Positions 14,346-41,738 of a DNA stretch of 64,000 nt are shown here, piece by piece. A program made the translations under genes and the position numbers. The notes beneath the pieces were generated by a model. That model saw only the letters and a list, made by a program, of their open reading frames with translations. It made no database searches and was not told the origin of the DNA. The stretch is from Gammaproteobacteria bacterium (GTDB taxonomy: Bacteria; Pseudomonadota; Gammaproteobacteria; Eutrophobiales; Eutrophobiaceae): positions 3,006,093 through 3,070,092 of the forward strand of contig OZ241347.1 in assembly GCA_965200295.1 (NCBI GenBank), read 5' to 3'. The first letter of the stretch is position 1. Every line of letters starts with the position of its first letter.

Positions 14346-14483
14346 GCTGTCGAGGTGGTCTTTGAGATAATAGCGGGTGTCGTTAGTCGTGCGCGTCCCG
14401 GCCTTGTTGTGCTGCTGCGCCGTGCCCAGTGAGAAGGCATGATCAAGGGGTTAGAAATGAGCATCAGGTTTTTCAGGGATGAC

Positions 14484-14948: not shown

Positions 14949-15023
14949 ATCTCTTCATAGCGTCGACTGGTCAAGCCTTTTGATGTAGTCTTTGTTGGAG
15001 AATTTCTTACTGAATTCTCAGCA

Positions 15024-15293
15024 TTAAACAACTGCGCCATCGCTGAGGTCCTGGTAAGAGAACCGTCCCATCACCGCCTTGGATAAGCCTGCGGCCAAAA
15101 ACCCGTTACCGAACTGTCCGCCCTGCAACTCAGCAAGGACACCCCCGGCCAGACCATGGGTCAGGACATGACCGGCGCCGCCCGCAGGTAACCCCGTGAG
15201 CGCTGTGAAATGCTCCCCTATCCCATAGAACGCCGCCGCACTGATACCCCCGAACAAAGCGCCCTTGACCGAGCCGGTGGCAAACCCGAGCAA
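15024..15293 (-). pseudogene. Displaced and decayed relic: RHS core end fused by deletions to a collapsed GH24 lysozyme tip, frameshifted
   Basis: Reads 'ATGSVKGALFGG...GRFSYQDLS' and then is out of frame. Continuing in the -1 frame gives 'AMAQLFNAENSVRNSPTK|TTSKGLTSRRYEEICM', which matches both ends of the lysozyme tip of 26982..37826 with the middle missing. Confidence 0.7.
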
Positions 15294-15903: not shown

Positions 15904-15905
15904 TG

Positions 15906-19323: not shown

Positions 19324-19584
19324 TTATTTGACAATCGTCAATTGCCATTCATCATCCTTATTTTTCTGATACAGCCAGACTTCACTTTTTTCTAATCCCC
19401 TCTCTTTATAATCCACTTGAAAGTAAACATTATCAGAATCGCCTTCTAGAATGCCGATTGATACCAATGTTGCCCATGGATGGTCTTGCCTGAATTTGTC
19501 TTCAACTTCTCCAACGGTTACTATGTCACAGGCTGCTAGTATTAGAACCAAAAGTGAGAAACCAAAAATCCGTCTGGCAATCAT
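19324..19584 (-). CDS. Small lipoprotein, putative immunity for the tip of RHS 19581..23234
   Basis: 86 aa with 'FGFSLLVLILAACD' (lipobox LAAC). Start overlaps the RHS stop. Confidence 0.6.
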   Translation of the reverse strand: MIARRIFGFSLLVLILAACDIVTVGEVEDKFRQDHPWATLVSIGILEGDSDNVYFQVDYKERGLEKSEVWLYQKNKDDEWQLTIVK

Positions 19585-23905: not shown

Positions 23906-25250
23906 GTAAAATGGTGTTTTTTTGAAGAGCAACCTACAACATAAGAGAGGTACACCACCATGCAGAACGATACTGTAGTTTCCTTAAAAAAGCCAGCAGA
24001 GGAATCAGATCCTTTGAGCAGTTTGTTACGCGACGGTGCCCGGGCGTTGTTGCACGGGGCATTAGAGGCGGAGTTGGCGACGTATTTGTCCAGGCATGCC
24101 GGTGACTGCGATGCATCGGGGCGTCGGCACTTGGTACGCAACGGGTATTTACCTGCGCGCACGGTGCTGACCGGCTTAGGTGAGGTGCCGATACGGGTGC
24201 CCAAGACGCGCGACCGGGGCGGTCAGGGTCGGCATTTTACGTCCCGGTTGTTACCGCCGTACATCAAGCGCACGACGAGCGTGGAGAGTGTGCTGCCGTG
24301 GTTGTATTTGAAGGGGGTGTCAACGGGGGACATGCGTGCGGCGTTAGCGGCGTTGCTGGGCGAGCAGGCGCAGGGGTTATCGGCGGCAACGGTGAGTCGG
24401 TTAAAGCGGGTGTGGGAGGACGAGTACCGGGTCTGGCGGGGGCGGCAGTTTACGGGTCGGCGTTACGTGTACGTGTGGGTAGACGGGATTTACTTCAATG
24501 TGCGCGGCGATGAGGCCCGGCAGTGTCTGCTGGTGATGATAGGGGTGGATGAGTGGGGCCACAAGACCTTGTTGGCGGTCGAGGACGGCTACCGGGAGTC
24601 CAAGCAGAGTTGGCGTGAACTGTTAGTGGACTTGCAAGCCCGGGGCTTTGCGCCGCCGGCGCTGGCTATCGGGGACGGGGCGCTGGGGTTCTGGGCGGCG
24701 CTGGCCGAAGTATATCCCACCACCCGCACACAGCGCTGTTGGGTGCACAAGATAGCGAATATCTTAAACAAGCTGCCCCAGGGTTTGCAGAACAAGGCCA
24801 AGGAAGGCTTACACGCCATCTGGATGGCCGAGAGCCGGGCGGCGGCGCTGGCGGCCTTGAACCGATTTATTCGCACCTATCAGGATAAGTACCCGAAGGC
24901 GACCGCCTGCCTGGACGAAGACCGGGAGGCCTTACTGGCCTTTTATGACTTCCCGGCCGCGCACTGGCAGTCCATCCGCACCACCAATCCCATTGAATCC
25001 ACGTTTGCCACCGTGCGCCTGCGTACCGCCAGGACACGAGGCTGTGTCAGCCGCACCAGCCTGCTGACCATGGTCTATAAGCTCGGATTATGCGCCGAGC
25101 AGAACTGGCGCCGGCTGCGGGGGTTCAAGCACCTGGCCGACGTGATTGAGAATGTGAAGTTTATTGACGGAGTAAAACAACAGACTATTGAACAACACCA
25201 ACGGGCCGCCTGACTATGAGGCCATACACCAGATTTGACAATAACTCCAT
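23906..25250 (+). mobile_element. IS256-family insertion sequence (boundaries approximate)
   Basis: Single 417-aa transposase plus imperfect terminal inverted repeats: left 'ggtgttgtaaaatggtgt', right (reverse complement) 'ggagttattgtcaaatctggtgtatgg'. No clean target-site duplication found. Interrupts RHS cassette 25075..26403. Confidence 0.6.
23960..25213 (+). CDS. IS256-family (Mutator-type) transposase
   Basis: 417 aa containing 'YVYVWVDGIYFNVRG', 'CWVHKIANILNKLP' and 'NPIESTFATVRLR', characteristic of IS256 transposases. Confidence 0.85.
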   Translation: MQNDTVVSLKKPAEESDPLSSLLRDGARALLHGALEAELATYLSRHAGDCDASGRRHLVRNGYLPARTVLTGLGEVPIRVPKTRDRGGQGRHFTSRLLPPYIKRTTSVESVLPWLYLKGVSTGDMRAALAALLGEQAQGLSAATVSRLKRVWEDEYRVWRGRQFTGRRYVYVWVDGIYFNVRGDEARQCLLVMIGVDEWGHKTLLAVEDGYRESKQSWRELLVDLQARGFAPPALAIGDGALGFWAALAEVYPTTRTQRCWVHKIANILNKLPQGLQNKAKEGLHAIWMAESRAAALAALNRFIRTYQDKYPKATACLDEDREALLAFYDFPAAHWQSIRTTNPIESTFATVRLRTARTRGCVSRTSLLTMVYKLGLCAEQNWRRLRGFKHLADVIENVKFIDGVKQQTIEQHQRAA

Positions 25251-26403
25251 ATGTATTGATTGCTTCATTAATGCTTAAACCTTGGTACTTATCCGTTCTA
25301 AGTAAATCAACGAGGGCCCGACGGCCTATGCTCTCACTGGGAAACACTGCGAAACCGCCCGCTTCGCCAAGAGAGCCTCTGCGTTCAGCAAAATCAGTGC
25401 TCGTAATATTACCAGGGTTATTATTGCGCCATGCTCTGGTGCCTCCAGAACGTACCTCTATCGAGCCGTCACTATATTCAATGATTACATCATTGCCATC
25501 CGCTCTTGCTGATACCGGAGCTCTGATACGTGCGTTATTAGCTGCTGCTTTCTCCGCATTAAACAACTGCGCCATCGCCGCCGTTAGCGCCCCATTAGCA
25601 AACTTGCCGCCGGTTATCCTTGAGACAGTGCCGCCCACCACAGCCGCTATGGTGGTGCGACCAATAACCGCCGGGGCGCTGAGGTCTCGGTAGGAGAACC
25701 GTCCCATCACTGCCTTGGACAAACCTGCCGCTAAGAACCCGTTGCCGAACTGCCCGCCCTGTAACTCGGCCAGAACACCCCCGGCCAAACCATGGGTCAG
25801 GACATGACCGGCGCCGCCCGCAGGCAGCCCCGTGAGCGCTGTGAAATGCTCCCCTATCCCATAGAACGCCGCCGCACTGATACCCCCGAACAAAGCGCCC
25901 TTGACCGAGCCGGTGGCAATGCCGCCGGTGACAAACCCGAACTGAAAGGCACTCAGCCAGGACTGGAAGACCCAAGCCTGTACGCCTGGTATCGCCAGCA
26001 AGGCAATGCTCAGGAACGGCGCAACATCCCCGAACACCTTGTTTAAGCCCTTAAACAGCTTCCCGATAAAATACCCACTGGGATCGGTGTAGGTCAAGGG
26101 GTTATTGAGCACATAGCTGTAGCGGTTCTGTCCCTGGGTATAGTGGGGAAACTGAATAATCGGGTCGGCCTGTAAGAACCGACCGAGCTTCGGGTCATAA
26201 ATGCGCCCGTTCATGTGGATTAAGCCGTGAGCATCGAGCATCTCATGGCCGGTGTAGCCGCGGGGGGTGAAGCGGGTGTGCAGCGGACTGGTCAGGGTGA
26301 GCTGGGCCAGTATCTCACTGTTGTCCGGGTTGATGCGCTGGCCCCAGGCGTCATAGCGCAGGCGCTGTAAGATAACGCCATCGGAGTCCACCACACCGAC
26401 CAC
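25075..26403 (-). CDS. Orphan RHS C-terminal cassette with an uncharacterized tip, 3' end disrupted by the IS
   Basis: Begins 'VGVVDSDGVILQRLRYDAWGQRINP...'. The unique tip runs '...NARIRAPVSARADGNDVIIEYSDGSIEVRSGGTRAWRNNNPGN...EAINTY' and then reads into IS sequence from about 25250. Conserved junction upstream at 26404-26541. Confidence 0.7.
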   Translation of the reverse strand: MVGVVDSDGVILQRLRYDAWGQRINPDNSEILAQLTLTSPLHTRFTPRGYTGHEMLDAHGLIHMNGRIYDPKLGRFLQADPIIQFPHYTQGQNRYSYVLNNPLTYTDPSGYFIGKLFKGLNKVFGDVAPFLSIALLAIPGVQAWVFQSWLSAFQFGFVTGGIATGSVKGALFGGISAAAFYGIGEHFTALTGLPAGGAGHVLTHGLAGGVLAELQGGQFGNGFLAAGLSKAVMGRFSYRDLSAPAVIGRTTIAAVVGGTVSRITGGKFANGALTAAMAQLFNAEKAAANNARIRAPVSARADGNDVIIEYSDGSIEVRSGGTRAWRNNNPGNITSTDFAERRGSLGEAGGFAVFPSESIGRRALVDLLRTDKYQGLSINEAINTYGVIVKSGVWPHSQAARWCCSIVCCFTPSINFTFSITSARCLNPRSRRQFCSAHNPSL

Positions 26404-26541
26404 GCTGTCGAGGTGGTCTTTGAGATAATAGCGGGTGTCGTTGGCCGTGCGCGTCCCGGCCTTGTTGTGCTGCTGCGCCGTGCCCAGTGAGAAGGCGTGA
26501 TCAAGGGGTTAGAAATGATCATCAGGCTTTTCAGGGATGAC

Positions 26542-27006
26542 TTACCCTGATGGATGACATTCAGTTACAGGGGGGGCATCAGTATTAATTGTCGTAATCC
26601 AATACGTTGTAATATCTCCGTCTGAAATTACTCCTGTAATCCACACATGACCATGCCCAACCATCAAGCCCCGCCAAGTAAAAAATAGAGCTTCAATTTC
26701 TTGTTTCAAAATAGCTTCTTTAACATTCGAATTGAAAATAACTTCGTAGTTTTTAATAAAATCAGCTTCAGTCTCGAGTCGCAACAGCTCTCCATTTTCC
26801 AATGAAATCGATAATGGATATGCGATAAGCTCTGAAATTCGTTTCTTATTATCTACCTTTGTGGCAGCTTTTAAGGCATTTACAAATGCTACCTGTTCCG
26901 ACGCAACTTCATAGGCGGATTCAAATTCACAAGCATTAGAATTAATAGCGCCAATAACCAATATTACTAATAATATTTTCACTAACAGCCCCCTTGAAAC
27001 ATGCAC
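26542..27006 (-). CDS. Periplasmic immunity protein for the GH24 lysozyme tip (signal peptide). GTG start overlaps the toxin 3' end by 25 nt
   Basis: 154 aa beginning 'VHVSRGLLVKILLVILVIGAINSNACE...'. Low GC. Immediately downstream of the lysozyme-tipped RHS. Confidence 0.7.
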   Translation of the reverse strand: MHVSRGLLVKILLVILVIGAINSNACEFESAYEVASEQVAFVNALKAATKVDNKKRISELIAYPLSISLENGELLRLETEADFIKNYEVIFNSNVKEAILKQEIEALFFTWRGLMVGHGHVWITGVISDGDITTYWITTINTDAPPVTECHPSG

Positions 27007-30000
27007 ATCTCTTTATAGCGTCGACTGGTCAAGCCTTTTGATGTAGTCTTTGCTCCGTCGACGGTAATTTTATCCCATCTCAAAAACTGACTTGCAGCGC
27101 CGGCATAATGCCCGGAATTGAGTTGTCTCAATAGTGTCGAGCTTCGAAAATTTCCCGCACCAATGTTAAGTGTCAGAGATACCAACGCATCAAACTGGTT
27201 CTGTGTCAAAGAAGCTGTGACACCATTTCTAACTGCTGCTTGGGCAACACCAATGTCCTGGCGCAATAATTTTATTGCTTGCTCTCTGGTTATACCGTTC
27301 GCGTAAACTCCGCTCTTTATTTCTGCAGATGTCAATTTATGACCATATCCAATAGTTGGATGTTTTGCTTGATCTGGATATACGATTGCACTAAATCCCT
27401 CTCGTTCCATAATATGTGCAAGTCCACTCTCACTGATCTTTGTTGGAGAATTCCTTATCGACGTTTCCGCATTAAACAACTGCGCCATCGCCGCCGTTAG
27501 CGCCCCGTTAGCAAACTTGCCGCCGGTGATACGGGAGATGGTGCCACCCACCACAGCCGCTATGGTGGTACGACCAATAACCGCCGGGGCGCTGACGTCT
27601 CGATAGGCGAACCGCCCCATCACCGCCTTGGACAAACCCGCCGCTAAGAACCCGTTGCCGAACTGCCCGCCCTGCAACTCGGCCAGAACACCCCCGGCTA
27701 AGCCATGGGTCAACACATGACCGGCGCCGCCCGCAGGTAACCCCGTGAGCGCCGTGAAATGCTCCCCTATCCCATAGAACGCCGCCGCACTGATACCCCC
27801 GAACAAAGCGCCCTTGACCGAGCCGGTGGCAATGCCACCGGTGACAAACCCGAACTGAAAGGCACTCAGCCAGGACTGGAAGACCCAAGCCTGTACGCCT
27901 GGTATCGCCAGCAAGGCAATGCTTAAAAACGGCGCAAAGTCCCCGAACACCTTGTTCAAGCCCTTAAACAGCTTCCCGATAAAATACCCACTCGGGTCGG
28001 CATAGGTCAAGGGATTGTTCAGCACATAGCTGTAGCGGTTCTGACCCTGGGTATAGTGGGGGAACTGAATAACCGAGTCGGCCTGTAAGAACCGGCCGAG
28101 CTTCGGGTCATAAATGCGCCCGTTCATGTGGATTAAACCGTGAGCATCGAGCATCTCATGGCCGGTGTAGCCGCGTGCGGTGAAGCGGGTGTGCAGCGGA
28201 CTGGTCAGGGTGAGCTGGGCCAGTATCTCACTGTTGTCCGGGTCGATGCGCTGGCCCCAGACGTCATAGCGCAGGCGCTGTAAGACAACGCCATCGGAGT
28301 CCACCACACCGACCACGCTGTCGAGGTGGTCTTTGAGATAATAGCGGGTGTCATTGGTCGTGCGGGCGCCGCTCTTGTCGTGTTGCTGGGTGATGAGTAC
28401 TGTCCCCCCGGCCAGCGTGCGCCGGTAGGCGCTGGCGCCGTCGGCGGCGATGACATGCTCTACGGCGCCGAGATAGACCGTGGTCGTGGTACTCGTGCCC
28501 TGACCGGTGCGCACCGTGTCCGTGCGGGTGCTGCGGCTGCGGTCGGGGCCGTAAACAAAGGTGGTGGCGTGTGTGCCCCGGGTGATGCCAGCCACCTTGT
28601 TAAAAGCCGTGTAGGTCAGCGTGCGCCTGGCGCCGCTGAGTTGGTTGCCGTTGGCATCGTAGGTGTAGGTATCCGTGCCGGCCTGTACTACGGCATGTGG
28701 GCCGGGGGTGCTCGCGTCCGTGCTGCCGTAGGTGTACACGCCCACCCCGCTCTTGCGGGTGATGTTGCCCTGAGCGTCGTAGTCCACAGTGCGGGTGATG
28801 CTGGTCCGGCCACCGGCAGTCCAGGCCCGCACCAGACGATTGTGGCGGTCGTAGCTGAGATACTCGCCGAACCGGATAGCGCCCGCCTGCCAGGCGCGCT
28901 GACTTAAGTTGCCGAGCACATCCCAGCCGTAGCTGTCCTTCTGCAAGCGCACACGCATGGCCGTGTGGGCAGTAATCAGACCCACGCGCCCGGTGCTGTC
29001 CGAAATGCTGCGCACCGTACTGACCGCACCGCCGCCTAAGGTCTCCCGGGTAACCTGCCCGCGCGCGTTGCGATGGTTGATGGTGCGATACACGGCGCGT
29101 GGGCGATTGTTCTCCTGCACCCCGTCGGTCCAGCGATACGCATGACCCCACTGGTTGTACTGCACCGCCACCACGTTATCCGTCCAGTCGGCCTGCTGGC
29201 GGGCCGCATCGAAGGTCTGATACGGACGCCCGTAGGCATCAAAAGTCTGGCGGCTGTGGTAGGTCTTCGCCGTAGCGCCGACGCGCACGGTGGTCTCGGT
29301 CATGGCAGGACGCCCCAGCCTGTCATAGCGGTGCGCGCGAACATAGCCGCTACGGGTGTCTGCGACCCGGCTGAGTTGCCCCAGACCATTAGCCGCCGTG
29401 TCATACGTCCAGGTCACCTCGGACTCAATATCCGGCTTGGTATCCGCATCAGCGCCATCCGGCACTGTGTCCCGGCGCGTCAGCGGGCGACCCAGGGCAT
29501 CATAAGTCAGCGCTTGGACATTGCCCACCGCATCGGTCTGTTTGACCAGTTCGTCAAAGCCGTTATACGTGTAGTGGGTCACACCCCGGTTTGGATCTGT
29601 TTCCTTGACACGTCGCCCGCGCAGGTCGTAGGCCCAGGCCACGGTCATGGCAGTATCGCCCGTGCCGGTGGCAGTCGCCACCACCTGCCCCCAGGCGTCG
29701 TAACGGTGCGTGACCGGCGTGCCCGCCGCATCGGTAGTCTTAATCACCTCGCCTAAGGCATTGCGGGTCTCGACGCTGGCCTGATTCTTGCCGTTGACGG
29801 TCTTAGCGCTCATGCCCTGATAAGTCATTGTGAGCCGGCTGTTGTGTCCGGCGCTGTAGTCAGGCAGGGTGGTCTGTGTCACCCGACCCAGCAGGTCGTA
29901 GGTGTGGACCGTGCGATACACCGTACCCCCGACATAGTACGGCTCGCTCTGCCGGGCCACCCGGCCCAAGGCATCATAGTCCGTGTCGGTATGTACCCAC

Positions 30001-33000
30001 TGCCCGCCAAAGCCGCGCCGGGCCGTGCGCACTACCCGATCCAGCATGTCCCGATAGTCCCGGCTGCCCCCGCCGCCGGACAGCCGGGTCTCGGTGTACC
30101 AGGCCGCCTGACCGGGACAGTGAGACACCCCGGCACAGGCCGCCCGCAGCGCGCCGGTGTGAGAACCGTCAGCGGTGTGCGTAAAATACAACCGTCCCCC
30201 GGCCGTGTAGTGGTAGGTGGTCTTGAGACTGGCTGTCACCGCATAGCTGCCGTTAACATCCAACACCTGCTCGGATTGGGTCGGCAGTCCGTGGGCGTTA
30301 TAGGCGCGGGTCCGGCGCAACGGGCGACCCAGGCAGTCTTTTTCCAGTGTCACAAACCGCCCAGCGCTGTCGTACTCTGTTGTGTCGGTGTTGCAACGGG
30401 TGACGCCGGCGGCGGTGACCGCAGCCCGGATGCGGTGGCCGAACTTGTCATAGTCATAGGTGGCGGTGTGTTTGAGGTCGGTCTTATCCGGCTCCCGTAC
30501 CTCAGTCTTGAGCAAGCCTTTGCGGTGACCGCTGGTGTAGTAGCTGAACTCGGCGGTGCGGCTTGCCGTGATCTTGCTGTCGTAGCTGTCGCTGTTGGCC
30601 GTCTCGTTGCGCTTGCGCGTCACCACACTCTTCGTGAGCCGCCCCAACTCTTTCGACTCGGTATCCGTTGCCGCGCCGTACGTGTTGGCGGTCATTTGCC
30701 AGAAGCGTTTAGCATTGGCGTGGTCTTCGGTGGTCGTTGTTATTTCGGTGGGGTTGCCATAGCTGTCCACCACAGTGTCGGTGGTGACCGTGATGAGATC
30801 ATCGCCGGCTTCGGTGGTGGTGACGTTGTTCTTGGTGCTGGTCACGGGCAGGTCATAGGTCGTCTCTACCGCCTGCGCCAGGTACGGTTGCAGGGCGCCT
30901 AAGTCAGTGGTGGGTTGGGCGACATTCCAGCCGGACTGATACCCCTTGAGTCGCCAGGTATTGGCCGCCGTCCGCAGCAGGTGCCCGTCCTCGGTCTTCA
31001 CCTCGGTCTTCAGGGGATAACCGGTGTAGGGGAAGTCCTGGCGATACGTAGTGGTGGTCGCTACCTCCGTTTGCAAGTCCATGGTCGTTAAGGTCTTAAA
31101 GCCCAGCAGCCCCCGACCGCCGGCCTGTATTTTTGCCTGCTCGTACAGGTAACAGACGCTGCTCAAAGCGGCTGCGTTGGCGCTCGTGGGGGCGCTGGAG
31201 TCGACCCGCGTGAGTACGTACAGCGGCGCCATCAACTCCAGCACTGGTGCATTGCCGGCGAGGGCAGACAGGGAGTCGGTCAGTGTGCTGTCCGCCCAGG
31301 GGGTGTTCAGCGCAGTGTAAAAGTCAGACGCATTCAGGCTGGCGGTCTGTGCCTCCCAGCAGAAGTTGGCGCCGCCCCAGGTGAAGCAGCGCTGCCGCTG
31401 TGTGCGGGTGGTGTGCAACCCGTCGATGCGGGCATAAGCGTCGGTGCGGCTCAGGGATTCATAGGTGAGCACGGTCTTGGCGCCCAGGCCGTTGGTGATG
31501 GCGGTAATGAGGTGCGGGCGGGTGGTGGTGTTATGGTGGTAGGTGGCGAGGCTCTCCGTACTGGTACCGGACTCCGGCAGATGCAGCAGGTCGGCGTTGC
31601 CGTCGCCGTTCACATCTGCAGTGAAGTACTGCTCGGCATCCTTGCCGCGGGTGGTGCGCACGCTGACCGCGGCGGCATAAGCGCCGGTTTTGGGTGAGAA
31701 ACGCTGTACGCGCAGAGCCTTGCCCTTCACGTCGTGGTAGAGCGCATCCGGGTAACCATCGCCGTTGTCGTCGTACAAGGACAGCGCCGAGGACGCCTGG
31801 GCGCCGGTCGCGACGTTCGTCAGTTGGGTCGCGTCGGTAAAGCCGGCGCCGGTACTCAGGCGGTAATGCCAGTTGCCGGTCCACTGGTAGTTGTTCCTGG
31901 CCTTCTCGTACCACTTGCCGACAAAGTAGAGGAGATCAGAGAGCCCGTCGCCGTTCAGGTCTGTACTACGGAGCCCTTTCGGACTGAGACCGGTGGCTGC
32001 CAGCGGGAAGCCGGCCGCGGCGCCATAGGGCTTGAACTCGATGCTATTCTCCTCGTCTGTTTGTCGAAACACATGCAGGCGGCGCAGTGCGTGCGTGGAC
32101 TGACCACTGGAGCTTCTTTGCAGATCAAACTGTATGGCGCTGTCATAGCCCCAGGTGATCAGGTCTGCGCGCCCATCCCCGTCCATATCCGCCAGCGCCA
32201 CATCTGCCACCCGTAGCGAGCGCCAGCGTAGCAGCTCCAGGCCGGTCGCGGTCGCAGCCTGGGGCGTAAACTCGATGGGCAGTCGCGTCTCCCCGGTGTA
32301 GGCATAATACCGGCTGGAGTCAGGTTTGGCGGCAGTGTTGCGTTTGAGATAGCGTACTGCCAGCGTGTAACCGGCGGGGCCATAGCGCACCGGCTGCCCC
32401 TGTTGCGGCGCCGGATGCGAAAGCTCAACTAAGCGATAGGCGTCCAGCAACCCGTCCGAGTTCAGGTCGGCATAGCGGTAACGGTCGCCGAACAGCCGGT
32501 CAGACACCGCAGTGCCGGCGCTGAGGCGCCAGCCGCCCGTGGCTTGTGTCCCGGTGGTGGTCTGCGGCACCGCCAGATGCAGCCGGGTCTCCTTATTTTT
32601 GGCGCTGTACACCAGCAGGTCGTGGCGCCCGTCGCCGTTGTAATCCACCACCTCGGTGTGCACGCGCAGGTTCTCGCCGTAATTGGATGTGCCGTAACCA
32701 TCGTCGTATTCCAGAGAGGTGCCCCCGCCTACGAAGACGCCAGATACCAACCGGCCAGTGGTTTTGTCGGCCAGGGCATAACGCAGCCGGTGTTTATCGC
32801 TGCTGGCTTCGGTCCAGACCAGATCGGTGAGCCCGTCGCCGTTGATGTCTGCGGGGTTGAAGTCCACCGGCGACCACTCACTCTCCGTGTTCAGGGTCAG
32901 CGTGGCCGCGGCTGCTTGTTTGAACAGCGGGGTCGGGTCAGACCAGGCAAACGTGGTTTCCGGCTGGCACACCGTCGTCCCTGAACCCACACACGCCTTG

Positions 33001-36000
33001 ACCCCAACCAGACGGGAGAGCGCATGAGTCGTAGCGCTCTGATAGCGCAGGCGGTAATTGCGCACGGCCTTCACGCTGCCGGTCGTGCCCGCCGAATGCA
33101 CCGTGATGGTAGTGAGGCGCTGGGCGCTTTGCAACGGGCGCCCGGCCAGATAGCCGCGGGTGATGTCGCCCCGGGTGAGGTCGTAGCCGAAGGCCACCTT
33201 GGCTCTGGCGGTCTGGGTGGTCTTGCCCGGGTCGCCGTAGGCATAACGAATCTCACGGAGGCGGTGGCCCTTTGCATCCAGTGTGTAGTGGTAGGTGATT
33301 TTGTTACCGACGCTGTCCTTGACCTGTTGCAGCGCCCAGGTCAGCGCTGGGTCGGTGGGGGATGCGTCGGTCAATTTAGCATAGAGCTTGTGCTCACTGG
33401 CGTTGGCGCCGGATGCGCCGTAGGTGGCCACCGAGCCGTCTTTACGGGTCACTTCAAAGTAGTCCGGGTGACCGCCTGTATCGTGCTTGACGGTGACGGT
33501 TGAGAAACTGTCGATCTCGGTCTTGTATTCGGTATTGGCCTCACCGTATTTACGGTTCTTGTTGGCGGCGCTGTCGCTGAGCGTCAGACGCTGCCCATCC
33601 AGGCAAAAGCGGTCGTTGCGGGTGAAGGTAAGCGGTTGGGCGGCGCCGTCCTGGGCCAGGGTCTGGCGGCAGCGGGTAATAGCGGAAAGTCCCTCGATGC
33701 CCCAGCCGATGCCGACCGGGCCGTTGCCGCGCTGGCTGTTGTAGCTGAGCGCCAGGGGTGGGATCACTCCGGCGGTGCCGGGCGGCAGGGGAATCTCAAT
33801 GCGGTAGGTGGCGGCGCCGGACTCGTCGGCCCGGAAGCTGCCGGGCAGGGTTCCGGTACGGTCGATCTTGCTTTTCTCGGTGTCGTTAATGACTGCATTA
33901 GGCTGCGTCCGGGCAGGCGCCGGGGGGCGGGGCACCGACGGCGTGCCGACCGTGACCGTGACAAGGGCGCTCCAGGGGCCACAATATTGCCCGTCACAGG
34001 CGCGCACCCGGTAGCCCCAGGCGCCGTTGGTCAGGGCGCTGAAGGCCTTACTGGTCTGGCTGCCGGTGTCGTGCGTCATCCAGTTTGCGCCGTTGCGTCG
34101 GGCCTGCAACTCGTAGCGGGTCGCCCCGGTGACCGGCTGCCAACTGACGCTGTGGTCGCCAGTGCTGCTGGCCGGGGCGGTCAGCCCGGCCGGGGCGGCC
34201 AGTTGTCGTTGCGGGGTCGCCGTGGCGCGCTCGCTCCAGGGAGAGTTGCCGCGCGCATTGACGGCTTGCACCTGCACTGCGTACTCAAGGCCGTTGGTGA
34301 GATTATCAATGACGGTCTCTGTGGTCTTCGTGGTGTGCGAGTGTGCGCGCCAGTTGGAAGCTGTGGCGAGCCGGTAACGCACGTTGTAGCCGGTCAGGGC
34401 GCTGCCGTTATCAGCCGGGGCGCGCCAGGTGACGGTCAGTTGGTCATCGCCCGGGGTCAGGTTGGGGGCATCAGGCTGCGCTGGCGGGCCGGGGACGGCC
34501 ACAGACAGGGCGGCGCTCCAGTTCCCGCAGGTGACGTTATCCTGGCGGCAGGCGCGCACCCGGTAGCTCCAGGCGCCGGCGGTCTTGCCGGTAATGGGTT
34601 TTGTGACGCCGGTGGTGACGGTGTAGGTGGTATCCCAACTGGCGCCGTCATCGTCGCTCTCTTGCAGCTGGTAGCGGGCGGCGCCAGTGACCGCATCCCA
34701 ACTGACAGTGTAATCCCCGTTCGCGTCCGGGGTAGTGGCCGTGAGGTTGGCCGGCACCTCAAGGCGCGGTACGGTGACCGCAAGAGACTGGCTCCAGCCA
34801 CTGCACACGCTGGCAGATTTACACGCGCGCACCCGGTAGGCCCAGTCGCCGGGGGCCTTGTCGGCGAAGGTCTTGTCCGTGCCGGTGGTGATGGAATAGG
34901 TGGCGCTCCAGGTTGCGCCGTCATCACTGCTTTCTTGCGCCTCATAGTAACTGGCGCCGGTCACGGCATCCCAGCTCAGGGTGTAGCCGCCCTGTGCCGT
35001 AGGGGTGGTGGCGCTGACATTGGCCGGGGCCGGGGTGACGCTGACCGTGACAGTGTAACTGGCGCTCCAGTTACCGCAGCTGGCACTGCGGTGGCGGCAG
35101 GCGCGCACCTGATAAGTCCAGGCGCCACTGGTCTTGCCGGCAAAGACTCTGCGGGTGCTGCTTGAGGTAGAGTAAGTGGCGTCCCAGGTCTTGCCGTCGT
35201 CATCGCTCTCCCGTAGCTGATAGCGTACGGCATGAGTGACAGTATTCCAACTGACCGTGTAGTCGCCGCCCACGGTGGGCGTGGTGCTGACAAGGCCGGG
35301 CGGCGCGCCGAGCCGGGGCACGGAGACGGTGATCGATGCGCTCCAGTCACTGCAGGCCGGGCTGGCGCCGCTGTTGCAGGCGCGCACCTGGTAAGTCCAG
35401 TTGCCGGTCCCCTGACCCGAGAACGCCCGGCGAGTACCGTTGCGCAGGGTATAGTCATCGTCCCAGGTCTTGCCGCCATCATCACTTTCCCGTAGTTCAT
35501 AGCGGGTGGCATGGGTGACGCTGTTCCAACTCACAGTATAGTTGCCCCGGGCATCCGCACGGGCGCCGGTGAGGCCGGTTGGGATCGCAGGTGTAGTCAC
35601 GGGGCGAGACACCACTACCGTGATAGGGCTGCCCATCGGCGCATTATTCAATAGCAACCGGTAGCTGTACTCTCCATCGCTCCGAGCAGTAAAGTCATGC
35701 GAGGTGGCATTGGCGGGAATGCCAGAGAGCGTCACCCAACTGCCCTGCGCGCCCACCCGCTCTTGCAACTCCCGGCAGAGGCGCCCGCCCCCGAAGCCGA
35801 TGCTGAAACACCGGGATAAGGCCCAGCGCACCGTATAGTCACCGTCCGGGCTGGGGTTGGGCGAAGCCACCAGAAGGGCACTCACCGTGACGGTGTGAGT
35901 GCTGCCCCAGTCACCACAGCCACCCGCATTACAGGCCCGGACCTGATAGTTCCAACTGCCGGATGCCACATTATTGAAGGCTTTGGATGTAGCCGTACCG

Positions 36001-37826
36001 GCGTCGTGCTCAGCCCATGCTCCGCTCGTGCCTTGACGCGCCCGGACCTTATAACTGGTGGCGCCGCTGGCAGAGTTCCAGGTGATGGTGTGGGCGCCGG
36101 CGCTCTTGGCCGGGCCATCTGCCGGCGGGGCAGCCAGGGGAACACCCACGGTAGCGTCACTCCATTCCGACCAGCCGCCGGCATTCTGTGCACGTATCCT
36201 TATCCGATAGGTGGCGCCGTTGGTCAGGCTGCGAATGGTAGTGCGGCGTGTAAGTCCGGTGACAGGATGTTGCCGGGTGGCGCTGCCGTCACGTTTGAAA
36301 GAGATCCCATAAGCGGTAATGGCTGCGCCGTTGCCGTCCGGGGTAGTCCAGGTCACCTGCAACTCGCCGGTGCCGGTGGTCACCGTCGGGCGGTCAGGCT
36401 TATCAGGTTCGTCCTGGGTACTCACGTTGACGGTGGCGCCGGGACTGAAATCAGACCAGCCCTCACTGTTCCCGGCCCGGACATGGACGGTGTAAGTGCC
36501 TGCAGCCAACCCGGAAACCGTGGCGCGGGTGGCGGCGCTGCCCGTGGTGGTGCGTTGCCAGGTGCCGCTGCCGCGGCGATACTGCAGGGTATAATCGGTA
36601 ATGGCATTACCGTTATCATCCGGCGCCGTCCAGGTGGCAGTGAACTGCCCTACCCCACCGGTCAGGGTGGGTCGGGCCGGACGCTCGGGCCGGTCAGCCG
36701 GAGGCGGCGCAACGGTTAACGTGGCGCTCTTTGTGGCAGAGGTGCCGCCGGGACCGGTGCAATAAAACTTGTCCGTGCGGGTGACAGTACGGTCTTTGGC
36801 TAACCAGTTGCCGCGGGTGCTGAAATCCTTCCCGTTCAGGTAACAGGCAGTGGCATTGGTGGATGACCAGCTTAACGTGGAGGAGGCTCCGTAGGCGACT
36901 GATGCCGGGCTCCAACTGATTGACGCCGTCGGTTTGGGAGTGCCGGTAATGGTCAGGGTGGCGCTCACCGTGGCGGAGGTGCCGCCGGGACCGGTGCAGT
37001 AAAACTTGTCCGTGCGGGTGGCGGTGCGATCTTTGGCTAACCAGTTGCCGCGGGTGCTGAAATCCTTCCCGTTCAGGTAACAGGCAGTGGCATTGGTGGA
37101 TGACCAGCTTAACGTGGAGGAGGCTCCGTAAGCGACTGATGCCGGGCTCCAACTGATTGACGCCGTCGGTTTGGGAGTGCCAGTGATGGTCAGGGTGGCA
37201 CTCACCGTGGCGGAGGTGCCGCCAGGGCCGGTGCAATACAAACTGTCGGTGCGCGTGTGTCGCTGGTTGGTGGCCCGCCAGCTATAGCCGGTGCCGCGCT
37301 CGGTTCTGTTCAGATAACAGGCGGTGGCATGGGTTGAAGACCAGATTAAGTTGGATGACCCGCCGTAGGCGATGGATGACGGCGACCAACGCATCGTGGC
37401 GGTGGGCTTGGGGGAGGTGACCGTGACACTTACCGGGCCGGCCGCGTCCCAGCAGGAGAGGCTCCCGAACACCGAGAGGCACTGCGAGGTTTTATAGCTG
37501 TAGGCGCCTGCTGCCTTGCCAGTGAAAGTCCTGGATGTGACGCTCCAGGGATACGTGCCTACCCACAACCAGCTCCCACTGCCAGTCTTCTCTAATAACT
37601 GTGTGCGAATAGAGTAGCTGGCCGGCCTGCTCCAGGTCACCGTATAAGATCCGTCCGTACTCGTAGCGGGGCTGACCGTCAGAGTGGGGGTCTGCGCCGC
37701 GGCGGGTAAGGAGGCGCCGGTGAACAGGCACAGGGACAACAGCAACGACCACAGGGTCCTGCTGCTGCCGACATAAGCAGGTATGGACCGGGATAGCGCC
37801 GACATACACCAACGGAGATCACGCAC
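26982..37826 (-). CDS. Giant secreted RHS/Tc-toxin BC-like protein (probable start 37805). Domains: signal peptide, Ig/FN3 repeats, SpvB-like domain, FG-GAP beta-propeller, RHS/YD shell and core, GH24 lysozyme tip
   Basis: Signal peptide '[40 protein letters not shown]'. Three tandem approximately 81-aa repeats. SpvB motif '[44 protein letters not shown]'. FG-GAP-like 'DxNGDGxxD' motifs at least six times. Numerous YD repeats. Core motifs '[13 protein letters not shown]...MAQLFNAE'. C-terminal '[21 protein letters not shown]...[44 protein letters not shown]...GLTSRRY' is a phage-type (GH24) lysozyme. Confidence 0.85.
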   Translation of the reverse strand: [3614 protein letters not shown]

Positions 37827-38044
37827 GAGGAAAGCCTCTGGTGTTGTTGGTTGTTCGTTTCTGCCCTGTTAAGCTGCAGGGCATGTGATTCGCGGCTCAC
37901 TCTATGAGACCGTCGCGGGACTGTCAAGCGTTTTTTGAGTTTTGTTTTTGAGTTTTATTCAGTTTAAGGCAGACTATGCACTGCTGTAACCGTGTAAAAA
38001 ATGAACGCAGAACCTCCGTTACGACCCTGGCAAACAACCTATTC

Positions 38045-39271
38045 ATGGCAACATTCAGATACAAGGCATTATCAGCGCAAGGCGGAGAGCCAGTGCGCGG
38101 GGATATTGACGCACCGTCCCGGGCGGCGGCCGTGCGCAAACTGCGACAGGCCGGGCAGCTGCCAATCAGTGTGCTGGCGAGCGGTGGTCAACCCTGGTTG
38201 CGCGCCGCTGCCCTGAAGTATCGACGCCCAAAGCGCAAGGTATCTCACCCGGATGTGGTGTTGCTGACCCGAGGTCTGGCTACCTTGCTGGAGGCCGGCC
38301 TGTCGCTGGAGCAGGCGCTACGGGCGCTGGCCGGCTTTGACCTGGCAGCGCCGGCCAGACGCATGGTAACGACCCTGGCCGAGCAACTGCAGGGCGGCGT
38401 CAGCTTGTCTGAGGCCCTGACACAACACCCGACAGTATTCGATGGCCTGTATATCAGTATGGTTCGGGCCGGTGAGGCCAGCGGCGCGCTGGATCAGGTG
38501 ATCGCACGGCTGGCGGATTACCTGGAACGCATGGCTGCGTTACGGGCCAACCTGATCAATGCTCTCATTTATCCGGGCATCCTGCTCGGTTTTTCCGTGG
38601 CGTCCGTGGTAGCGCTGATGACGTTTGTTATCCCGCAGTTTGTGCCCCTGTTTGAGGGCGCCAACCAGACGTTGCCGTGGCTGACGCGCGTAGTATTTAG
38701 CGGCTCGGCGTTATTCCAGGCCTACTGGTGGTGCCTGCCGCCTGGCCTGCTGCTGTGCGTCTGGAGTGTGGACAAGTATCTCGCCGACCCCGGGCGCCGC
38801 TATCGTGTGGATGGCTGGTGCTTGCGCCTGCCCTGGCTGGGCACGCTGATCCGGCAGGTAGAGATTGCGCGTTGTGCGCGCACCCTGAGCACGGCGCTCA
38901 GTCATGGGGTACCGCACCTGACCGGCATCGCGTTGGTGCGACAGGCCAGCGTCAATACGCACATAGCCGAGACGCTGGCGGCCGTGTCAAACAGCCTGGA
39001 GCAGGGACAGTCCATGGCCGCGCCGCTGAAAGAATCGCAACTGTGGCCGGCGCTGGCTACGCAACTGATCGAAATCGGTGAGGCCAGCGGTCAGCTGGAA
39101 CCCATGCTGGCAAAGCTGGCAGACATCTATGACGGAGAGGTGCAGGCCGGCATCAAACGACTGTTGACGGTGTTGGAACCGCTGTTGATACTGGGACTGG
39201 GCGGCCTGATTGCGGTGATCATCGCATCCGTGCTGCTGGCCGTGATGGGACTGAACGCACTGGTGATATAA
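38045..39271 (+). CDS. gspF: T2SS inner-membrane platform protein GspF
   Basis: 'MATFRYKALSAQGGEPVRGDIDAPSRAAAVRKLRQAGQLPISV' is a GspF-type N-terminus. About 408 aa with three transmembrane segments. Transcribed divergently from the RHS gene. Confidence 0.85.
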   Translation: MATFRYKALSAQGGEPVRGDIDAPSRAAAVRKLRQAGQLPISVLASGGQPWLRAAALKYRRPKRKVSHPDVVLLTRGLATLLEAGLSLEQALRALAGFDLAAPARRMVTTLAEQLQGGVSLSEALTQHPTVFDGLYISMVRAGEASGALDQVIARLADYLERMAALRANLINALIYPGILLGFSVASVVALMTFVIPQFVPLFEGANQTLPWLTRVVFSGSALFQAYWWCLPPGLLLCVWSVDKYLADPGRRYRVDGWCLRLPWLGTLIRQVEIARCARTLSTALSHGVPHLTGIALVRQASVNTHIAETLAAVSNSLEQGQSMAAPLKESQLWPALATQLIEIGEASGQLEPMLAKLADIYDGEVQAGIKRLLTVLEPLLILGLGGLIAVIIASVLLAVMGLNALVI

Positions 39272-39276
39272 TATAA

Positions 39277-39427
39277 GGTAACCTCTAAAAATGCCCTCCG
39301 TGGCATTTATAGAGACGGAAATGAAAAAGTGTGATTTTTCATTTCCTTCATTTTCAAGCACTTACGTGCTTAAAAATGGCAGCATATCTTTATGCTGCAC
39401 GGCCACCTCTAATTTTTAGAGGTGGCC
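39277..39427. repeat. Full copy of the composite palindromic repeat, between gspF and gspD
   Basis: Same five-hairpin architecture as 197-345, with compensatory changes in the stems (for example aagcacttacgtgctt in place of agtcactcacgtgact). Confidence 0.8.
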
Positions 39428-39440
39428 ATAACACACGCGC

Positions 39441-41738
39441 TTGTCTGATATTCTGCGCGCGGCTATGGCTGCGCCCGGCAAGAGCAAAACGGGTGCGCGG
39501 CGCGTGCGCCGTCAACCCGGCGGAGTCGTCGTTTTGAAAACTGTTTCGGGAGATGAAAAAACTGACATGTGCGGTATTGAGGAACAAACAGCAACCATTT
39601 GTAAGGACGCTGGAATCAGTGTGGACATAGGCCGCAGAACCGTGAGGTTAAGGCTGTTATGTCAACTCGGCTGCGTGGCGTTGCTGTTGGCGGCATGTTC
39701 TCATGCTCCGCCGGACAACAATGTTGCGTTACAGCCGGACGCTGAAACCAGGCAAGAGGGCGCGCCTGCGCCTGATACAGCAAACGCGCACACCCAAAAC
39801 ATCACCGCGGAAGCGGCAGAAGCGACTAACGCGCAACCGCGTCCGGCTGTGCGCGAACAGGCATCGACCGGCTTTGTTGGTGAACCATCCCCTCCAATAC
39901 CGTCCCAACCTGTCGCTGAGGGCGGCATCAACCTTAATTTTCAGGACACCGACCTGCGCGAGTTTGTGCGGCTGATCCTCAATGACGTGTTGAATGAAAA
40001 CTACGTTATTGACAGCAATGTGCAAGGCAGCGTCACCCTCAACACAGCCCGGCCGGTGCATCCGGATACGGCGCTGGGGTTGCTGGAAGATGTACTGGCC
40101 CTGCACGACGCGGCGCTGATCCGACAAGGCGACCTGTACCGTGTCGTGCCGGAACAGCAAGCGGCAGGGCAACTCTCTCCGGGTATGACTACGGCCGGAG
40201 GGTATGCCGTCCGGGTGCTACCGCTCAAGTATATTGCGGCGCAGGAGTTACAAACGCTGTTGGAGCCGTTCCTGGCAGAAGGCGCGAATGCGCGCATTGA
40301 TGCCAAGCGCAACCTGCTGGTGGTGTCCGGCACGCAACAAGAGATCGCCGCGCTACAGGACGCAGTGGCGCTTTTTGACGTGGACTGGCTGCGTGGGATG
40401 TCGATAGGCTTGTATCCCCTGTACCACGTCTCACCGGGCGCCATGAAAGCAGAACTGGAGGCGGTGTTGAACGCGCTGGATGCGGAAGAAGGGCAGGACC
40501 CGTTAGGCGGGCTGGTGCGTATTGTAGCGTTCGACCGGTTACAATCCGTGCTGTTGGTGGGCTCCACTCCCACAGCGCTGGCCGAGACGGAAACCTGGTT
40601 AAAGCGTCTGGATGTAGCTGGCGAAGGGGTGGACAAGCGCTTGTACGTGTATCACGTGCAGAATGCCAAAGCCGTCGAGTTGGGCGCCGTGCTGGGCCGT
40701 ATTTTCAATGTCTCTGCACGCGCCGATCGGCCCGGCGAGATGCAAGCAAGCCTGCCTCTGACCGCACTGCAAGAACAACCTGACGGTTTGGGCGCCGCAG
40801 TTGATGCCGGGGGGCTGGCGCTGTCAACGGATCAACACATCGATATTATTGCCGATGAGACACGTAATGCGCTGGTTATTCTGGCGCAGCCGCAGGCGTA
40901 CAAGTTAGTGCTTGCGGCCTTGACCGAACTGGACCAGGCGCCGCTGCAAGTGCTGATTGAAGCCAGTATTATCGAAGTCAGCCTCAGGGATGAACTGGAC
41001 TACGGGGTGGAATGGTTCTTCAAGAATAACTTCGAACGCGGCAACGTGGTAGGTGGGCGCGGTGCGCTGGACCTGGGCACAACCGGGATTGCCGCCACCG
41101 CCCCTTCGTTCTCCTACACCGTGTTGGATAACGCTGATCAGGCGCGCATCGCCCTTAACGCCCTGGAGCAGGAAACCCAGGTGAATATCCTCTCTTCACC
41201 GTCGTTGATGGTGTTGGATAACCAGACTGCGTTCATTAATGTAGGCGATGAGATTCCGGTGCCGGCGCGCCAGTCCGTCAGCAACATCAACCCGGACTCG
41301 CCCACCGTGAATGAGATACAGTTCCGGCAAACCGGCATTACTCTGACGGTCACGCCGCGGGTGAACCACAATGGCCGGGTAACCATGGACATCCGCCAGG
41401 AAGTCAGCAGCGCCGTGGGCACTACTTCATCAAACCTCGACGCGCCGACCATTCAGCAACGTCAGGTGGAAAGCACCGTAGCCGTGCATTCCGGGGAAAC
41501 CCTGGTGCTGGGCGGTTTGATCCAGGATTCTGCCAGCGACGCCGAGAGCGGCATTCCGGGCCTGCGCCGCATTCCGCTGCTGGGCAAGCTGTTCGGCGAG
41601 ACCCGGGCAGAGCAACGGCGCACGGAACTGTTGGTGCTGATAACGCCGCGGGTGATCGTGGATCGCAACGACATGCGGCAGATTACAGACGAGTTCAGGG
41701 ATAAGCTGCGCGCCATCGCGCCGGCGGGGCCGGCCTGA
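39441..41738 (+). CDS. gspD: T2SS secretin GspD (probable true start GTG 39642, giving a lipoprotein-type signal peptide)
   Basis: C-terminal secretin domain 'VLGGLIQDSASDAESGIPGLRRIPLLGKLFGE...LLVLITPRVI'. Internal GTG at 39642 yields 'MRLRLLCQLGCVALLLAAC/S' (lipobox). This is followed by a low-complexity Pro/Ala/Gln-rich linker. Confidence 0.85.
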   Translation: MSDILRAAMAAPGKSKTGARRVRRQPGGVVVLKTVSGDEKTDMCGIEEQTATICKDAGISVDIGRRTVRLRLLCQLGCVALLLAACSHAPPDNNVALQPDAETRQEGAPAPDTANAHTQNITAEAAEATNAQPRPAVREQASTGFVGEPSPPIPSQPVAEGGINLNFQDTDLREFVRLILNDVLNENYVIDSNVQGSVTLNTARPVHPDTALGLLEDVLALHDAALIRQGDLYRVVPEQQAAGQLSPGMTTAGGYAVRVLPLKYIAAQELQTLLEPFLAEGANARIDAKRNLLVVSGTQQEIAALQDAVALFDVDWLRGMSIGLYPLYHVSPGAMKAELEAVLNALDAEEGQDPLGGLVRIVAFDRLQSVLLVGSTPTALAETETWLKRLDVAGEGVDKRLYVYHVQNAKAVELGAVLGRIFNVSARADRPGEMQASLPLTALQEQPDGLGAAVDAGGLALSTDQHIDIIADETRNALVILAQPQAYKLVLAALTELDQAPLQVLIEASIIEVSLRDELDYGVEWFFKNNFERGNVVGGRGALDLGTTGIAATAPSFSYTVLDNADQARIALNALEQETQVNILSSPSLMVLDNQTAFINVGDEIPVPARQSVSNINPDSPTVNEIQFRQTGITLTVTPRVNHNGRVTMDIRQEVSSAVGTTSSNLDAPTIQQRQVESTVAVHSGETLVLGGLIQDSASDAESGIPGLRRIPLLGKLFGETRAEQRRTELLVLITPRVIVDRNDMRQITDEFRDKLRAIAPAGPA

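Follow-up and report, generated by a model that had tools for sequence, protein, structure and literature searches.

The DNA considered here is a stretch of 64,000 nucleotides ('the window') from contig OZ241347.1 of a gammaproteobacterium placed in the Eutrophobiaceae (positions 3,006,093 to 3,070,092), and our subject is the giant rhs gene at its centre. At 3614 codons this is the longest open reading frame (ORF) of the 64-kb window (26982..37826, minus strand) and, from the ORF list, its translation, and matches in Pfam and NCBIfam, it encodes a polymorphic toxin of the TcB-TcC fusion type, 3614 amino acids (aa) in length. The gene starts with GTG, preceded at a distance of 8 nt by the sequence AGAGG; codon 8 is an ATG that could serve as an alternative start. 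A sigma-70-like promoter (37899..37927, minus strand; TTGACA-17-TAGAGT, judged solely by a consensus match of 10/12) reads from 37927 to 37899 within a 150-bp divergent intergenic gap, common to the giant gene and to gspF, a gene of a type II secretion system (T2SS). The protein opens with a predicted Sec-type signal peptide (aa 1-44; 37695..37826), identified by inspection of the sequence from a hydrophobic core that peaks at aa 33-35 and a predicted cleavage site between AAA and Q. After it, Pfam and NCBIfam place SpvB, an integrin-like propeller, RHS repeats and a toxin tip, in that order; here and below, all rhs features lie on the minus strand.

The SpvB/TcaC N-terminal domain (aa 1335-1519; 33270..33824; Pfam PF03534, E 1.9e-13) is succeeded by an FG-GAP or integrin-like beta-propeller of TcB-like fold at aa about 1650-2085 (31572..32879; Pfam FG-GAP_3 and FG-GAP), in which seven DxNGDGxxD motifs are found when counted as D-x-[ND]-x-DG-x-x-D. 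A TcdB_toxin_midN match follows at aa 2065-2127 (31446..31634; PF12256, E 2.1e-19, 70 bits); its companion, TcdB_toxin_midC (PF12255), was not reported by Pfam in the giant protein at E <= 0.01. The RHS/YD-repeat shell then extends over aa about 2128-3186 (28269..31445; RHS_repeat, PF05593, E 2e-13; TIGR01643), with eleven YDxxG motifs, and leads into the Rhs-associated core, or aspartyl autoprotease plug, at aa 3187-3281 (27984..28268). Here TIGR03696 (Rhs_assc_core) scores 64 bits against a cutoff of 32.5 (E 1.4e-17, aa 3187-3280), and the core ends in the motif NNPLTYADPSGY, which fits the pattern PxxxxDPxG[LY].

By sequence only, similarity to solved TcB structures was marginal (YenB, E 1e-4, limited to the SpvB segment), and solved Rhs structures from type VI secretion systems (T6SS) gave weak matches to the YD shell, none of them individually significant or above the reporting threshold. 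Because these sequence matches could not settle whether the region is TcB-like, we predicted a structure for aa 1290-2420, a region that takes in the SpvB domain, with AlphaFold2 (AF2) from an alignment of 20 homologues (pLDDT 76, pTM 0.79). When this model was searched against the PDB with Foldseek, the top 13 matches were all TcB or TcB-TcC chains (TcdB2, TcdB1, YenB), with E values from 1.9e-34 to 5.6e-30 over about 1260 aligned columns and TMq of 0.48-0.58; the best single match was 6h6e_F (E 1.9e-34, TMq 0.58), and the next after the TcB chains was the T6SS Rhs protein Tse5 (E 5e-13, TM 0.14). With the top 13 places taken by TcB and Tse5 so far behind, the predicted fold indicates that the shell-closing half of the giant protein is of the Tc type, not the T6SS type. 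In a second AF2 model, which covers the core and everything C-terminal to it, the core part resembles teneurin, TcC and Rhs plugs by fold search.

A first-pass annotation of this DNA, made by a model from the letters alone, had proposed a signal peptide, the SpvB signature, 'DxNGDGxxD' FG-GAP propeller repeats, a long run of YD repeats, FN3-like modules and a GH24 lysozyme tip, and had recommended domain annotation with hidden Markov models as well as structure prediction for the shell. Every module that it named was matched in Pfam or NCBIfam, and the model of aa 1290-2420, by its resemblance to TcdB2, TcdB1 and YenB, bears out its suggestion of a TcB/TcC 'cocoon', in that a SpvB/propeller/shell unit that is TcB-like by predicted fold is fused, in one ORF, with a TcC-like YD shell and Rhs core. 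It was also right that an Rhs core is present, and mistaken in drawing this as a single element running from 'DPxGL' to 'MAQLFNAE': DPSGY (aa 3277) closes the core, and LFNAE (aa 3450) closes a separate domain of 173 aa, to which we return below.

The variable C-terminal toxin that lies beyond LFNAE (aa 3455-3614; 26982..27464) is a GH24 lysozyme (PF00959, E 2e-35, 122 bits, aa 3475-3606), in which E3476, D3485 and T3491 align with E11, D20 and T26 of T4 lysozyme; endolysins in the PDB match this tip at about 1e-25 by sequence search (8app, E 9e-25). The proposal that the cargo is a cell-wall hydrolase holds to the extent that the GH24 muramidase tip is intact, and fails if the hydrolase is meant as the whole cargo, as the conserved domain precedes it. 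Overlapping the stop of the toxin by 25 nt is a gene for a protein of 154 aa with a signal peptide (26542..27006), the candidate cognate immunity gene, for which Pfam gave no match; together, tip and immunity gene have a GC content of 40%. The same pairing is found on an independent metagenomic contig, where a GH24 Rhs tip is directly followed by a homologue of the 154-aa partner that is 62% identical.

Searching the window with the giant protein (tblastn) uncovered eight further rhs pieces, all on the same strand, between 7208 and 26475: five open cassettes, here o1 to o5, and three remnants. Up to LFNAE the five cassettes retain 94-99% DNA identity with the main gene. Each intact tip, in the main gene and the orphans, is followed by a small ORF with a signal peptide or lipobox, the start and stop codons overlapping, and the tips and partners have 37-43% GC (49% for the IS-truncated tip of o1; IS, insertion sequence) versus 64% for the conserved body. 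As read from sequence, this is the pattern expected of toxin/immunity pairs, the small exported ORFs being candidate immunity genes; because the partner proteins carry export signals, the site of action would be the periplasm. We regard these orphan cassettes as the strongest evidence for what appears to be an antibacterial role, and their 94-99% identity to the main gene up to LFNAE means that payloads could be swapped by recombination.

The tips fall into four distinct types and one unknown: the main gene ends in the GH24 lysozyme, two orphans in a DUF6973 domain and another in a DUF6973-like domain, and the remaining two have no assigned function, one of them being overlapped by an IS. Nearest to the main gene, o1 (25075..26475) consists of core and conserved domain (aa 3147-3451 equivalent, 95% identical) and a 158-aa tip of no assigned function, with its 3' end overlapped by a Mutator-family IS transposase (23960..25213, plus strand; PF00872, E 9e-70), of which a copy, 81% identical, is present in a related locus (L001, see below). 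The second, o2 (19324..23234), corresponds to aa 2417-3456 (98% identical) and carries a 137-aa tip, in which a DUF6973-like PGHDN..RH motif can be read by eye (Pfam gave no match), and an 86-aa lipoprotein with an LAAC lipobox (19324-19584). After this lipoprotein lies an ORF of 246 aa (18490-19230; 43% GC; no Pfam match), with a hydrophobic N-terminus if read from an internal Met, which may encode a further immunity protein or be what is left of another cassette. In o3 (15298..18554; aa 2745-3456 equivalent, 99.6% identical), a 141-aa tip without a Pfam or PDB match in sequence searches is partnered by a 201-aa exported protein (15298-15903); we had entertained a LAS-type peptidase (HxxxxxxD...HxH) for this tip, and dropped it when these searches came back empty.

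Further along, a decayed lysozyme-type cassette (14484..15287) retains a fragment of the conserved domain and the last 22 lysozyme codons. It adjoins an intact, signal-peptide-bearing paralogue of the candidate immunity gene (14484-14948), 78% identical to that at 26542-27006; this is an 'orphan immunity' gene that could shield against lysozyme-armed relatives. The two DUF6973 cassettes are o4 (12667..14417; core and conserved domain, 70% identical; a 124-aa exported protein at 12667-13041) and o5 (8719..12371; aa 2503-3467 equivalent, 96% identical; a 120-aa exported protein at 8719-9081), and their exported partners are 45% identical to each other. Found in all three DUF6973 or DUF6973-like tips (8719-9509, 12667-13466 and 19324-19988) is the motif PGH[ND]N...RH; for the tip of o4 no solved relative was found, and the context suggests that these domains are periplasm-acting toxins. 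The array ends in shell fragments equivalent to aa 2875-3196, with no tip (7208..8591).

The orphans also define where the toxin begins. All six copies, main and orphan, reach ...ITGGKFANGALTAAMAQLFNAE and then split into tips of 137-160 aa, the main alignment of each orphan halting just past that sequence, at nt 10361-10368 of the giant gene. Because similarity among the copies continues beyond DPSGY (aa 3277) and ends only there, the polymorphic junction is, by sequence comparison, LFNAE, and the 173-residue segment of aa 3282-3454 (27465..27983) accompanies each toxin. We call this segment the pre-toxin (PT) domain, on the basis of its DUF637 scores, AF2 helices and composition: it has a mass of 17.4 kDa and a pI of 10, with 18.5% Gly, 16.8% Ala and seven GxxxG motifs, and is predicted to be all-helical (8 helices, pLDDT 84-92). 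In the model of core, PT domain and lysozyme the last part is of low confidence, because the alignment is heterogeneous there. The cargo is accordingly two-part, with a constant, basic, 'glycine-zipper' helical PT domain of 17 kDa and an exchangeable toxin of 15-17 kDa that starts after LFNAE. DUF637, the sole Pfam family found in the PT region, is matched by 36 of 91 homologues, and by the o4 paralogue (13041-14345, 70% identical) at 28.3 bits, over the Pfam cutoff. In the literature that we searched, DUF637 is treated as a marker of type V secretion systems (T5SS) and CdiA, and no paper was found that places it within an Rhs cargo. The core and PT region recurs in at least 1256 database proteins, among whose tips are lysozyme, M23, Tae4, CHAP, NlpC/P60 and several nucleases.

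In all five intact cassettes, PT domain and tip together come to 33.0-34.8 kDa with a pI of 8.8-9.9 (34.6 kDa for the lysozyme cargo of the giant protein), while four of the five tips alone come to 15.5-16.1 kDa with a pI of 5.9-6.8. Natural TcC cargoes of Tc toxins are about 30-35 kDa with a pI of at least 7.9, activation of the Tc cocoon needs a cargo of at least about 20 kDa, and the pI of the cargo must be at least about 8 (PMC6868009), whilst T6SS Rhs cages enclose cargo of 9-20 kDa (PMC8636562). We infer from this comparison that the PT domain may serve to normalise each payload to the size and charge demands of a Tc-type cocoon.

At the other end of the protein, sliding-window self-comparison, together with matches to the Pfam families fn3, ChitinaseA_N, Ig_J and Y_Y_Y, resolves aa 47-1300 (33927..37688) into an array of 14 beta-sandwich modules, of which eight are ChitinaseA_N/FN3-like, three Ig-like and three canonical fn3. 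The three Ig-like repeats are in tandem, as had been noted, with a period of 79 aa (237 bp in the DNA) and not the approximately 81 aa first given; they span aa 132-369 (36720..37433), with borders at aa 132-211, 208-290 and 287-369, and copies 2 and 3 are 98% identical.

The whole rhs array, 31 kb on the minus strand, splits an otherwise complete-looking T2SS cluster between gspE and gspF-gspD, with all T2SS ORFs of the window intact (assignments from Pfam and NCBIfam). Beyond the downstream end of the array lie gspH, I, J, K, L-like, M, C/N-like and E (295..6643, plus strand), and divergent from the giant gene are gspF and the secretin gene gspD (37976..41738, plus strand); gspG would precede the start of the window. 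GspE (642.9 bits; cutoff 630), GspM_XpsM (127; cutoff 60) and GspD (465.9; cutoff 351) all exceed their NCBIfam cutoffs, and GspF, at 386.2 bits, falls under its equivalog cutoff of 424. The description of the giant protein as a 'self-contained' delivery protein is probably wrong, because its gene lies inside this T2SS operon. We also observed that GspE (4913-6643) has an N-terminal domain of the MshEN type that binds cyclic di-GMP (c-di-GMP; Pfam MshEN, 6e-11; NCBIfam c-di-GMP motif, 38.4 bits, cutoff 38), and the secretion system, perhaps toxin export too, may be regulated by c-di-GMP. Beyond gspF-gspD are an ExeA-like AAA_22 ATPase gene (41965-43257, minus strand) and an IS4-type DDE transposase (43696-44805). 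Housekeeping genes occupy 45235-64000 (MutH, Dus, an FKBP isomerase, the tail-specific protease Prc, a HemN-like radical SAM protein, a sodium:solute symporter and a low-molecular-weight phosphatase), which suggests a chromosomal context rather than that of a plasmid or phage.

Homologues were sought with sub-regions of the giant protein. For the TcB-like region, at least 879 were found at E <= 1e-10 among 8000 candidates scored, mostly from uncultured marine and soil Gammaproteobacteria, and also from Bacteroidota, Myxococcota and Verrucomicrobiota; the closest are 56-58% identical. We compared 83 related loci, of which 80 come from species-representative genomes and three from contigs of metagenomes. 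A single ORF spans SpvB to the Rhs core in at least 50, running to about 2000-2300 residues from the start of SpvB, and many of these fused proteins have N-termini that, judged by eye, resemble signal peptides; an N-terminal extension of at least 900 aa is present in only about six. One relative, 36% identical (L003, 10001-18020), has TcB-like (1543 aa) and TcC-like (1145 aa) parts called as two overlapping genes, either because B and C are truly separate there, without TcA, or because the long-read assembly contains a frameshift.

As the first-pass annotation had stated, the window holds no TcA-like pore subunit: the only ORFs above 800 aa are the giant gene and its own orphan copies, and the other large ORFs proved in Pfam scans to be T2SS, IS and housekeeping genes. 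Nor was a TcA-type gene found within 10 kb of the homologue in three related loci (L001-L003), or among nine large flanking ORFs of other loci. T2SS genes were found beside some homologues. In L001, whose giant protein is 56% identical, a gspE that is 69% identical lies directly upstream of the homologue; in L004 (OZ244846.1; giant protein 56% identical), a gspD that is 78% identical lies beside a giant gene split by two IS elements; and in L006, a metagenome-assembled genome (Gammaproteobacteria, isolate SB0675_bin_3; 1863-15857), gspD-E-L-M-C of a different, classical T2SS subtype precede a same-orientation rhs homologue, a SpvB/FG-GAP/TcdB_midN/RHS gene whose product is 35% identical and which continues past the contig end. 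No T2SS gene lies within 10 kb of the homologue in L002 or L003. Secretins at two further loci (L038 and L057), considered as possible T2SS links, were discounted on proving to be of the type IV pilus (T4P)/MSHA type; that of L057 is, in addition, separated from the rhs gene by housekeeping genes. Taken as gene context, these neighbourhoods are suggestive of a link between Rhs proteins of this kind and the T2SS.

Drawing these observations together, we think it likely that the giant protein is a TcA-independent, Sec-exported, antibacterial Rhs polymorphic toxin, which forms a cocoon around a self-cleaved cargo of 33-35 kDa and acts in the periplasm. In the model that we propose, Sec would take the precursor to the periplasm by means of the signal peptide seen at its N-terminus. 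The TcB-like and TcC-like halves would then close as a Tc-type cocoon around the last 333 residues, and the core protease, recognisable by both fold and motif, would cut between DPSGY and F within it. We suggest, at roughly even odds and from gene context, that the flanking T2SS carries the protein over the outer membrane, whereupon the 14-module FN3/Ig stalk might bind a surface or a target cell. Finally, the cargo would be freed in the target periplasm, where the GH24 muramidase, its catalytic residues intact, could cut peptidoglycan. Siblings would be protected by the exported candidate immunity protein encoded directly downstream, and the orphan cassettes would permit 'payload switching' via recombination up to LFNAE.

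Several points weigh against this model. Of about 80 related loci, those with adjacent T2SS genes represent only two independent lineages, and T2SS substrates are usually unlinked to the T2SS machinery, so that the statistics are weak. Judging from published structures, the width of a folded Tc-type cocoon is close to that of the GspD channel or greater, and passage in the folded state is questionable for that reason. The cocoon would also have to open without TcA, and a cargo that fits the size and charge rules of TcA-dependent translocation could equally hint at an unseen TcA-like partner. As to the PT domain, DUF637 scores 24.1 bits on the main copy, under the Pfam cutoff of 26.6; a fold search with the model of core, PT domain and lysozyme found no significant solved structural neighbour for its helices; and the nuclease tips in the wider core and PT family mean that it is not specific to periplasmic payloads.

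The alternative that survives best retains the same antibacterial toxin and supposes that its place in the T2SS operon is an insertion accident in an IS-rich region, with release by way of the TcB-like module itself, outer-membrane vesicles or lysis; this we consider possible, if somewhat unlikely. It would account for true T2SS neighbours in two independent lineages only, the secretins of other loci being T4P/MSHA-type, and it sits well with the IS elements inside and beside the array, with the two relatives that have no T2SS genes within 10 kb, and with the width of the cocoon relative to the secretin lumen. It is harder to reconcile with an arrangement that is kept where the giant proteins are only 56% identical (L001 and L004), with T2SS ORFs that are all intact in the window and a 150-bp divergent promoter region common to the giant gene and gspF, or with the pairing in L006 of a different T2SS subtype with a same-orientation homologue; an independent preprint, moreover, ties other Rhs families to gspG.

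More ambitiously, the PT domain might act as a membrane-active leader that takes the toxin over the outer membrane of the target, a speculation that we offer tentatively. A fuller version of this idea, which we regard as rather doubtful, is that the protein works against bacteria as a 'Tc-like' injector made of one chain, free of TcA and provided with its own T2SS, in which binding of the stalk opens the propeller gate, and the PT domain, shared with CdiA, both sets the size and charge of the cargo and inserts in the outer membrane, carrying peptidoglycan hydrolases into the periplasm. If true, T5SS and Rhs toxins would have in common a new module for translocation over the outer membrane, and Gram-negative Rhs proteins with signal peptides would have a first secretion route.

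The main rival identity, very unlikely in our judgement, makes the giant protein part of a canonical ABC (Tc) toxin as its fused BC subunit, with a tcA elsewhere in the genome supplying the pentameric injector and a eukaryote, host or grazer, as the target. The predicted fold does match TcB, a cargo of 33-35 kDa and pI 8.8-9.9 does fit the rules of TcA-dependent translocation, and orphan tcC and tcB genes distant from tcA are known (PMC7861908). Against this, the giant protein has a Sec signal peptide and an N-terminal array of 1250 aa, and a muramidase would have no substrate in the eukaryotic cytosol. To our knowledge, neither such a signal peptide nor an array of that type occurs in canonical TcB. 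Every tip has an exported partner, which points to self-protection in a bacterial periplasm, and no TcA was found within 10 kb of the related loci examined, nor was TcdB_toxin_midC detected. According to one study, Tc toxins are released by lysis, in dependence on a lysis cassette (PMC10847048). That last point, with the long FN3/Ig stalk typical of adhesins and polysaccharide-binding exoproteins and the use by teneurins of the same shell without toxin injection, might be turned towards a surface adhesin or matrix protein, a teneurin-like scaffold with a lysozyme for remodelling its own wall or for lysis-based release; we give this next to no credence, as the tip occupies the polymorphic site and can be exchanged for unrelated tips, which have exported partners of their own and foreign GC, the candidate toxin/immunity pair is conserved elsewhere (on the metagenomic contig noted above), and the core protease motif before the cargo is intact.

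The locus bears on how Rhs cocoons without a T6SS spike or a TcA injector exit the cell and release their cargo, and the class of SpvB-Rhs proteins with signal peptides is widespread. Our antibacterial, Sec-exported reading would make this locus a compact test case, with a flanking candidate export machine, an easily assayed muramidase, a candidate immunity protein, and a PT domain cleanly separable from five natural payloads. That the PT domain brings every cargo to 33-35 kDa and pI 8.8-9.9 also ties the engineering rules of Tc toxins to a natural antibacterial system.

Of the known systems, the BC cocoon of Tc toxins (TcdB2-TccC3 of Photorhabdus and YenB-YenC2 of Yersinia entomophaga; PDB 4O9X, 6H6E, 4IGL) is alike in its predicted TcB fold, SpvB domain, TcdB_toxin_midN, YD shell and core protease, and the basic cargo of 33-35 kDa resembles the natural hypervariable regions of TcC. 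The giant protein differs in having B and C in one chain behind a signal peptide and a long array, with no TcA nearby, in its antibacterial-type payload, candidate immunity genes and orphan cassettes, and in that midC was not detected. Canonical Tc toxins are synthesised in the cytoplasm without a Sec signal and deliver a payload for the eukaryotic cytosol; the giant protein, by contrast, has a signal peptide, and its payload, a muramidase, comes with an exported partner.

The T6SS Rhs effectors (RhsA of P. protegens, Rhs1 of P. laumondii, Tse5 of P. aeruginosa) combine a YD cocoon, C-terminal aspartyl autoproteolysis at DPxG, an encapsulated toxin, a downstream immunity gene and recombining orphan cassettes, to which correspond the YD shell, core motif, predicted cargo, candidate immunity gene and orphan cassettes of the giant protein. 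It is set apart from them by having no PAAR/prePAAR, DUF6531 plug, VgrG or Eag chaperone genes and by closure with a TcB-type propeller; its cargo is about twice their 9-20 kDa, and its variable junction lies 173 aa past the cleavage motif and not at the motif.

The comparison with 'teneurin or WapA' made at the outset was apt for WapA and weak for teneurin. WapA of Bacillus subtilis is a Sec-dependent, wall-associated, contact-dependent YD-repeat toxin with a polymorphic C-terminal toxin and cognate immunity, and the giant protein is likewise a signal-peptide Rhs/YD toxin without a T6SS; unlike WapA, it has a SpvB/propeller module. WapA, from a Gram-positive bacterium that does not have an outer membrane to cross, has wall-binding repeats and carries a cytoplasmic tRNase. 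Teneurins and the mosquito protein SGS1 (a weak sequence match, E 5e-5) are also single chains with beta-sandwich domains, a propeller and a YD shell, but the toxin-like domain of teneurin lies outside the shell, and neither teneurins nor SGS1 form part of toxin/immunity cassette systems. The pre-toxin region of CdiA (T5SS; DUF637/PT-VENN) similarly has a glycine-rich conserved domain that ends in a short invariant motif before the variable toxin. Here the motif is LFNAE and not VENN, and the domain is inside an Rhs cargo; Pfam scans of the giant protein and the neighbouring ORFs gave no TPS domain, FHA repeats or CdiB transporter.

Among Rhs proteins at large, a census of Tc toxins by Song et al. 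was deliberately confined, as regards Rhs-like proteins, to those encoded next to tcA or tcB, and it noted the delivery route of orphan tcC as unknown (PMC7861908). A 2025 preprint reports a long, SpvB/TcdB-bearing Rhs in a Xanthomonas strain and proposes an Rhs-T2SS linkage for Xanthomonas and Ralstonia, in which secretion by the T2SS is predicted, without functional proof, and other Rhs families are tied to gspG. Our literature search turned up no functional work on any protein of the signal-peptide SpvB-Rhs class, which was described by comparative genomics as the 'TcdB/TcaC' class by Zhang, de Souza, Anantharaman, Iyer and Aravind (2012, Biol Direct 7:18), with the layout of signal peptide, SpvB, integrin-like propeller, RHS repeats, variable C-terminal toxin and immunity genes (PMC3482391). 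The giant protein has the defining elements in the same order, with a candidate immunity gene downstream, and, judged by these, is a member of the TcdB/TcaC-type Rhs polymorphic toxins catalogued in 2012 and not a new kind of system. To that layout it adds the 14-module FN3/Ig array of 1250 aa, a DUF637-like PT domain in the cargo and a position in a T2SS operon; its value lies in such details, the LFNAE junction, the CdiA-like PT domain, the theme of periplasmic toxin and immunity, and the embedding among T2SS genes, by which a widespread class is made directly testable.

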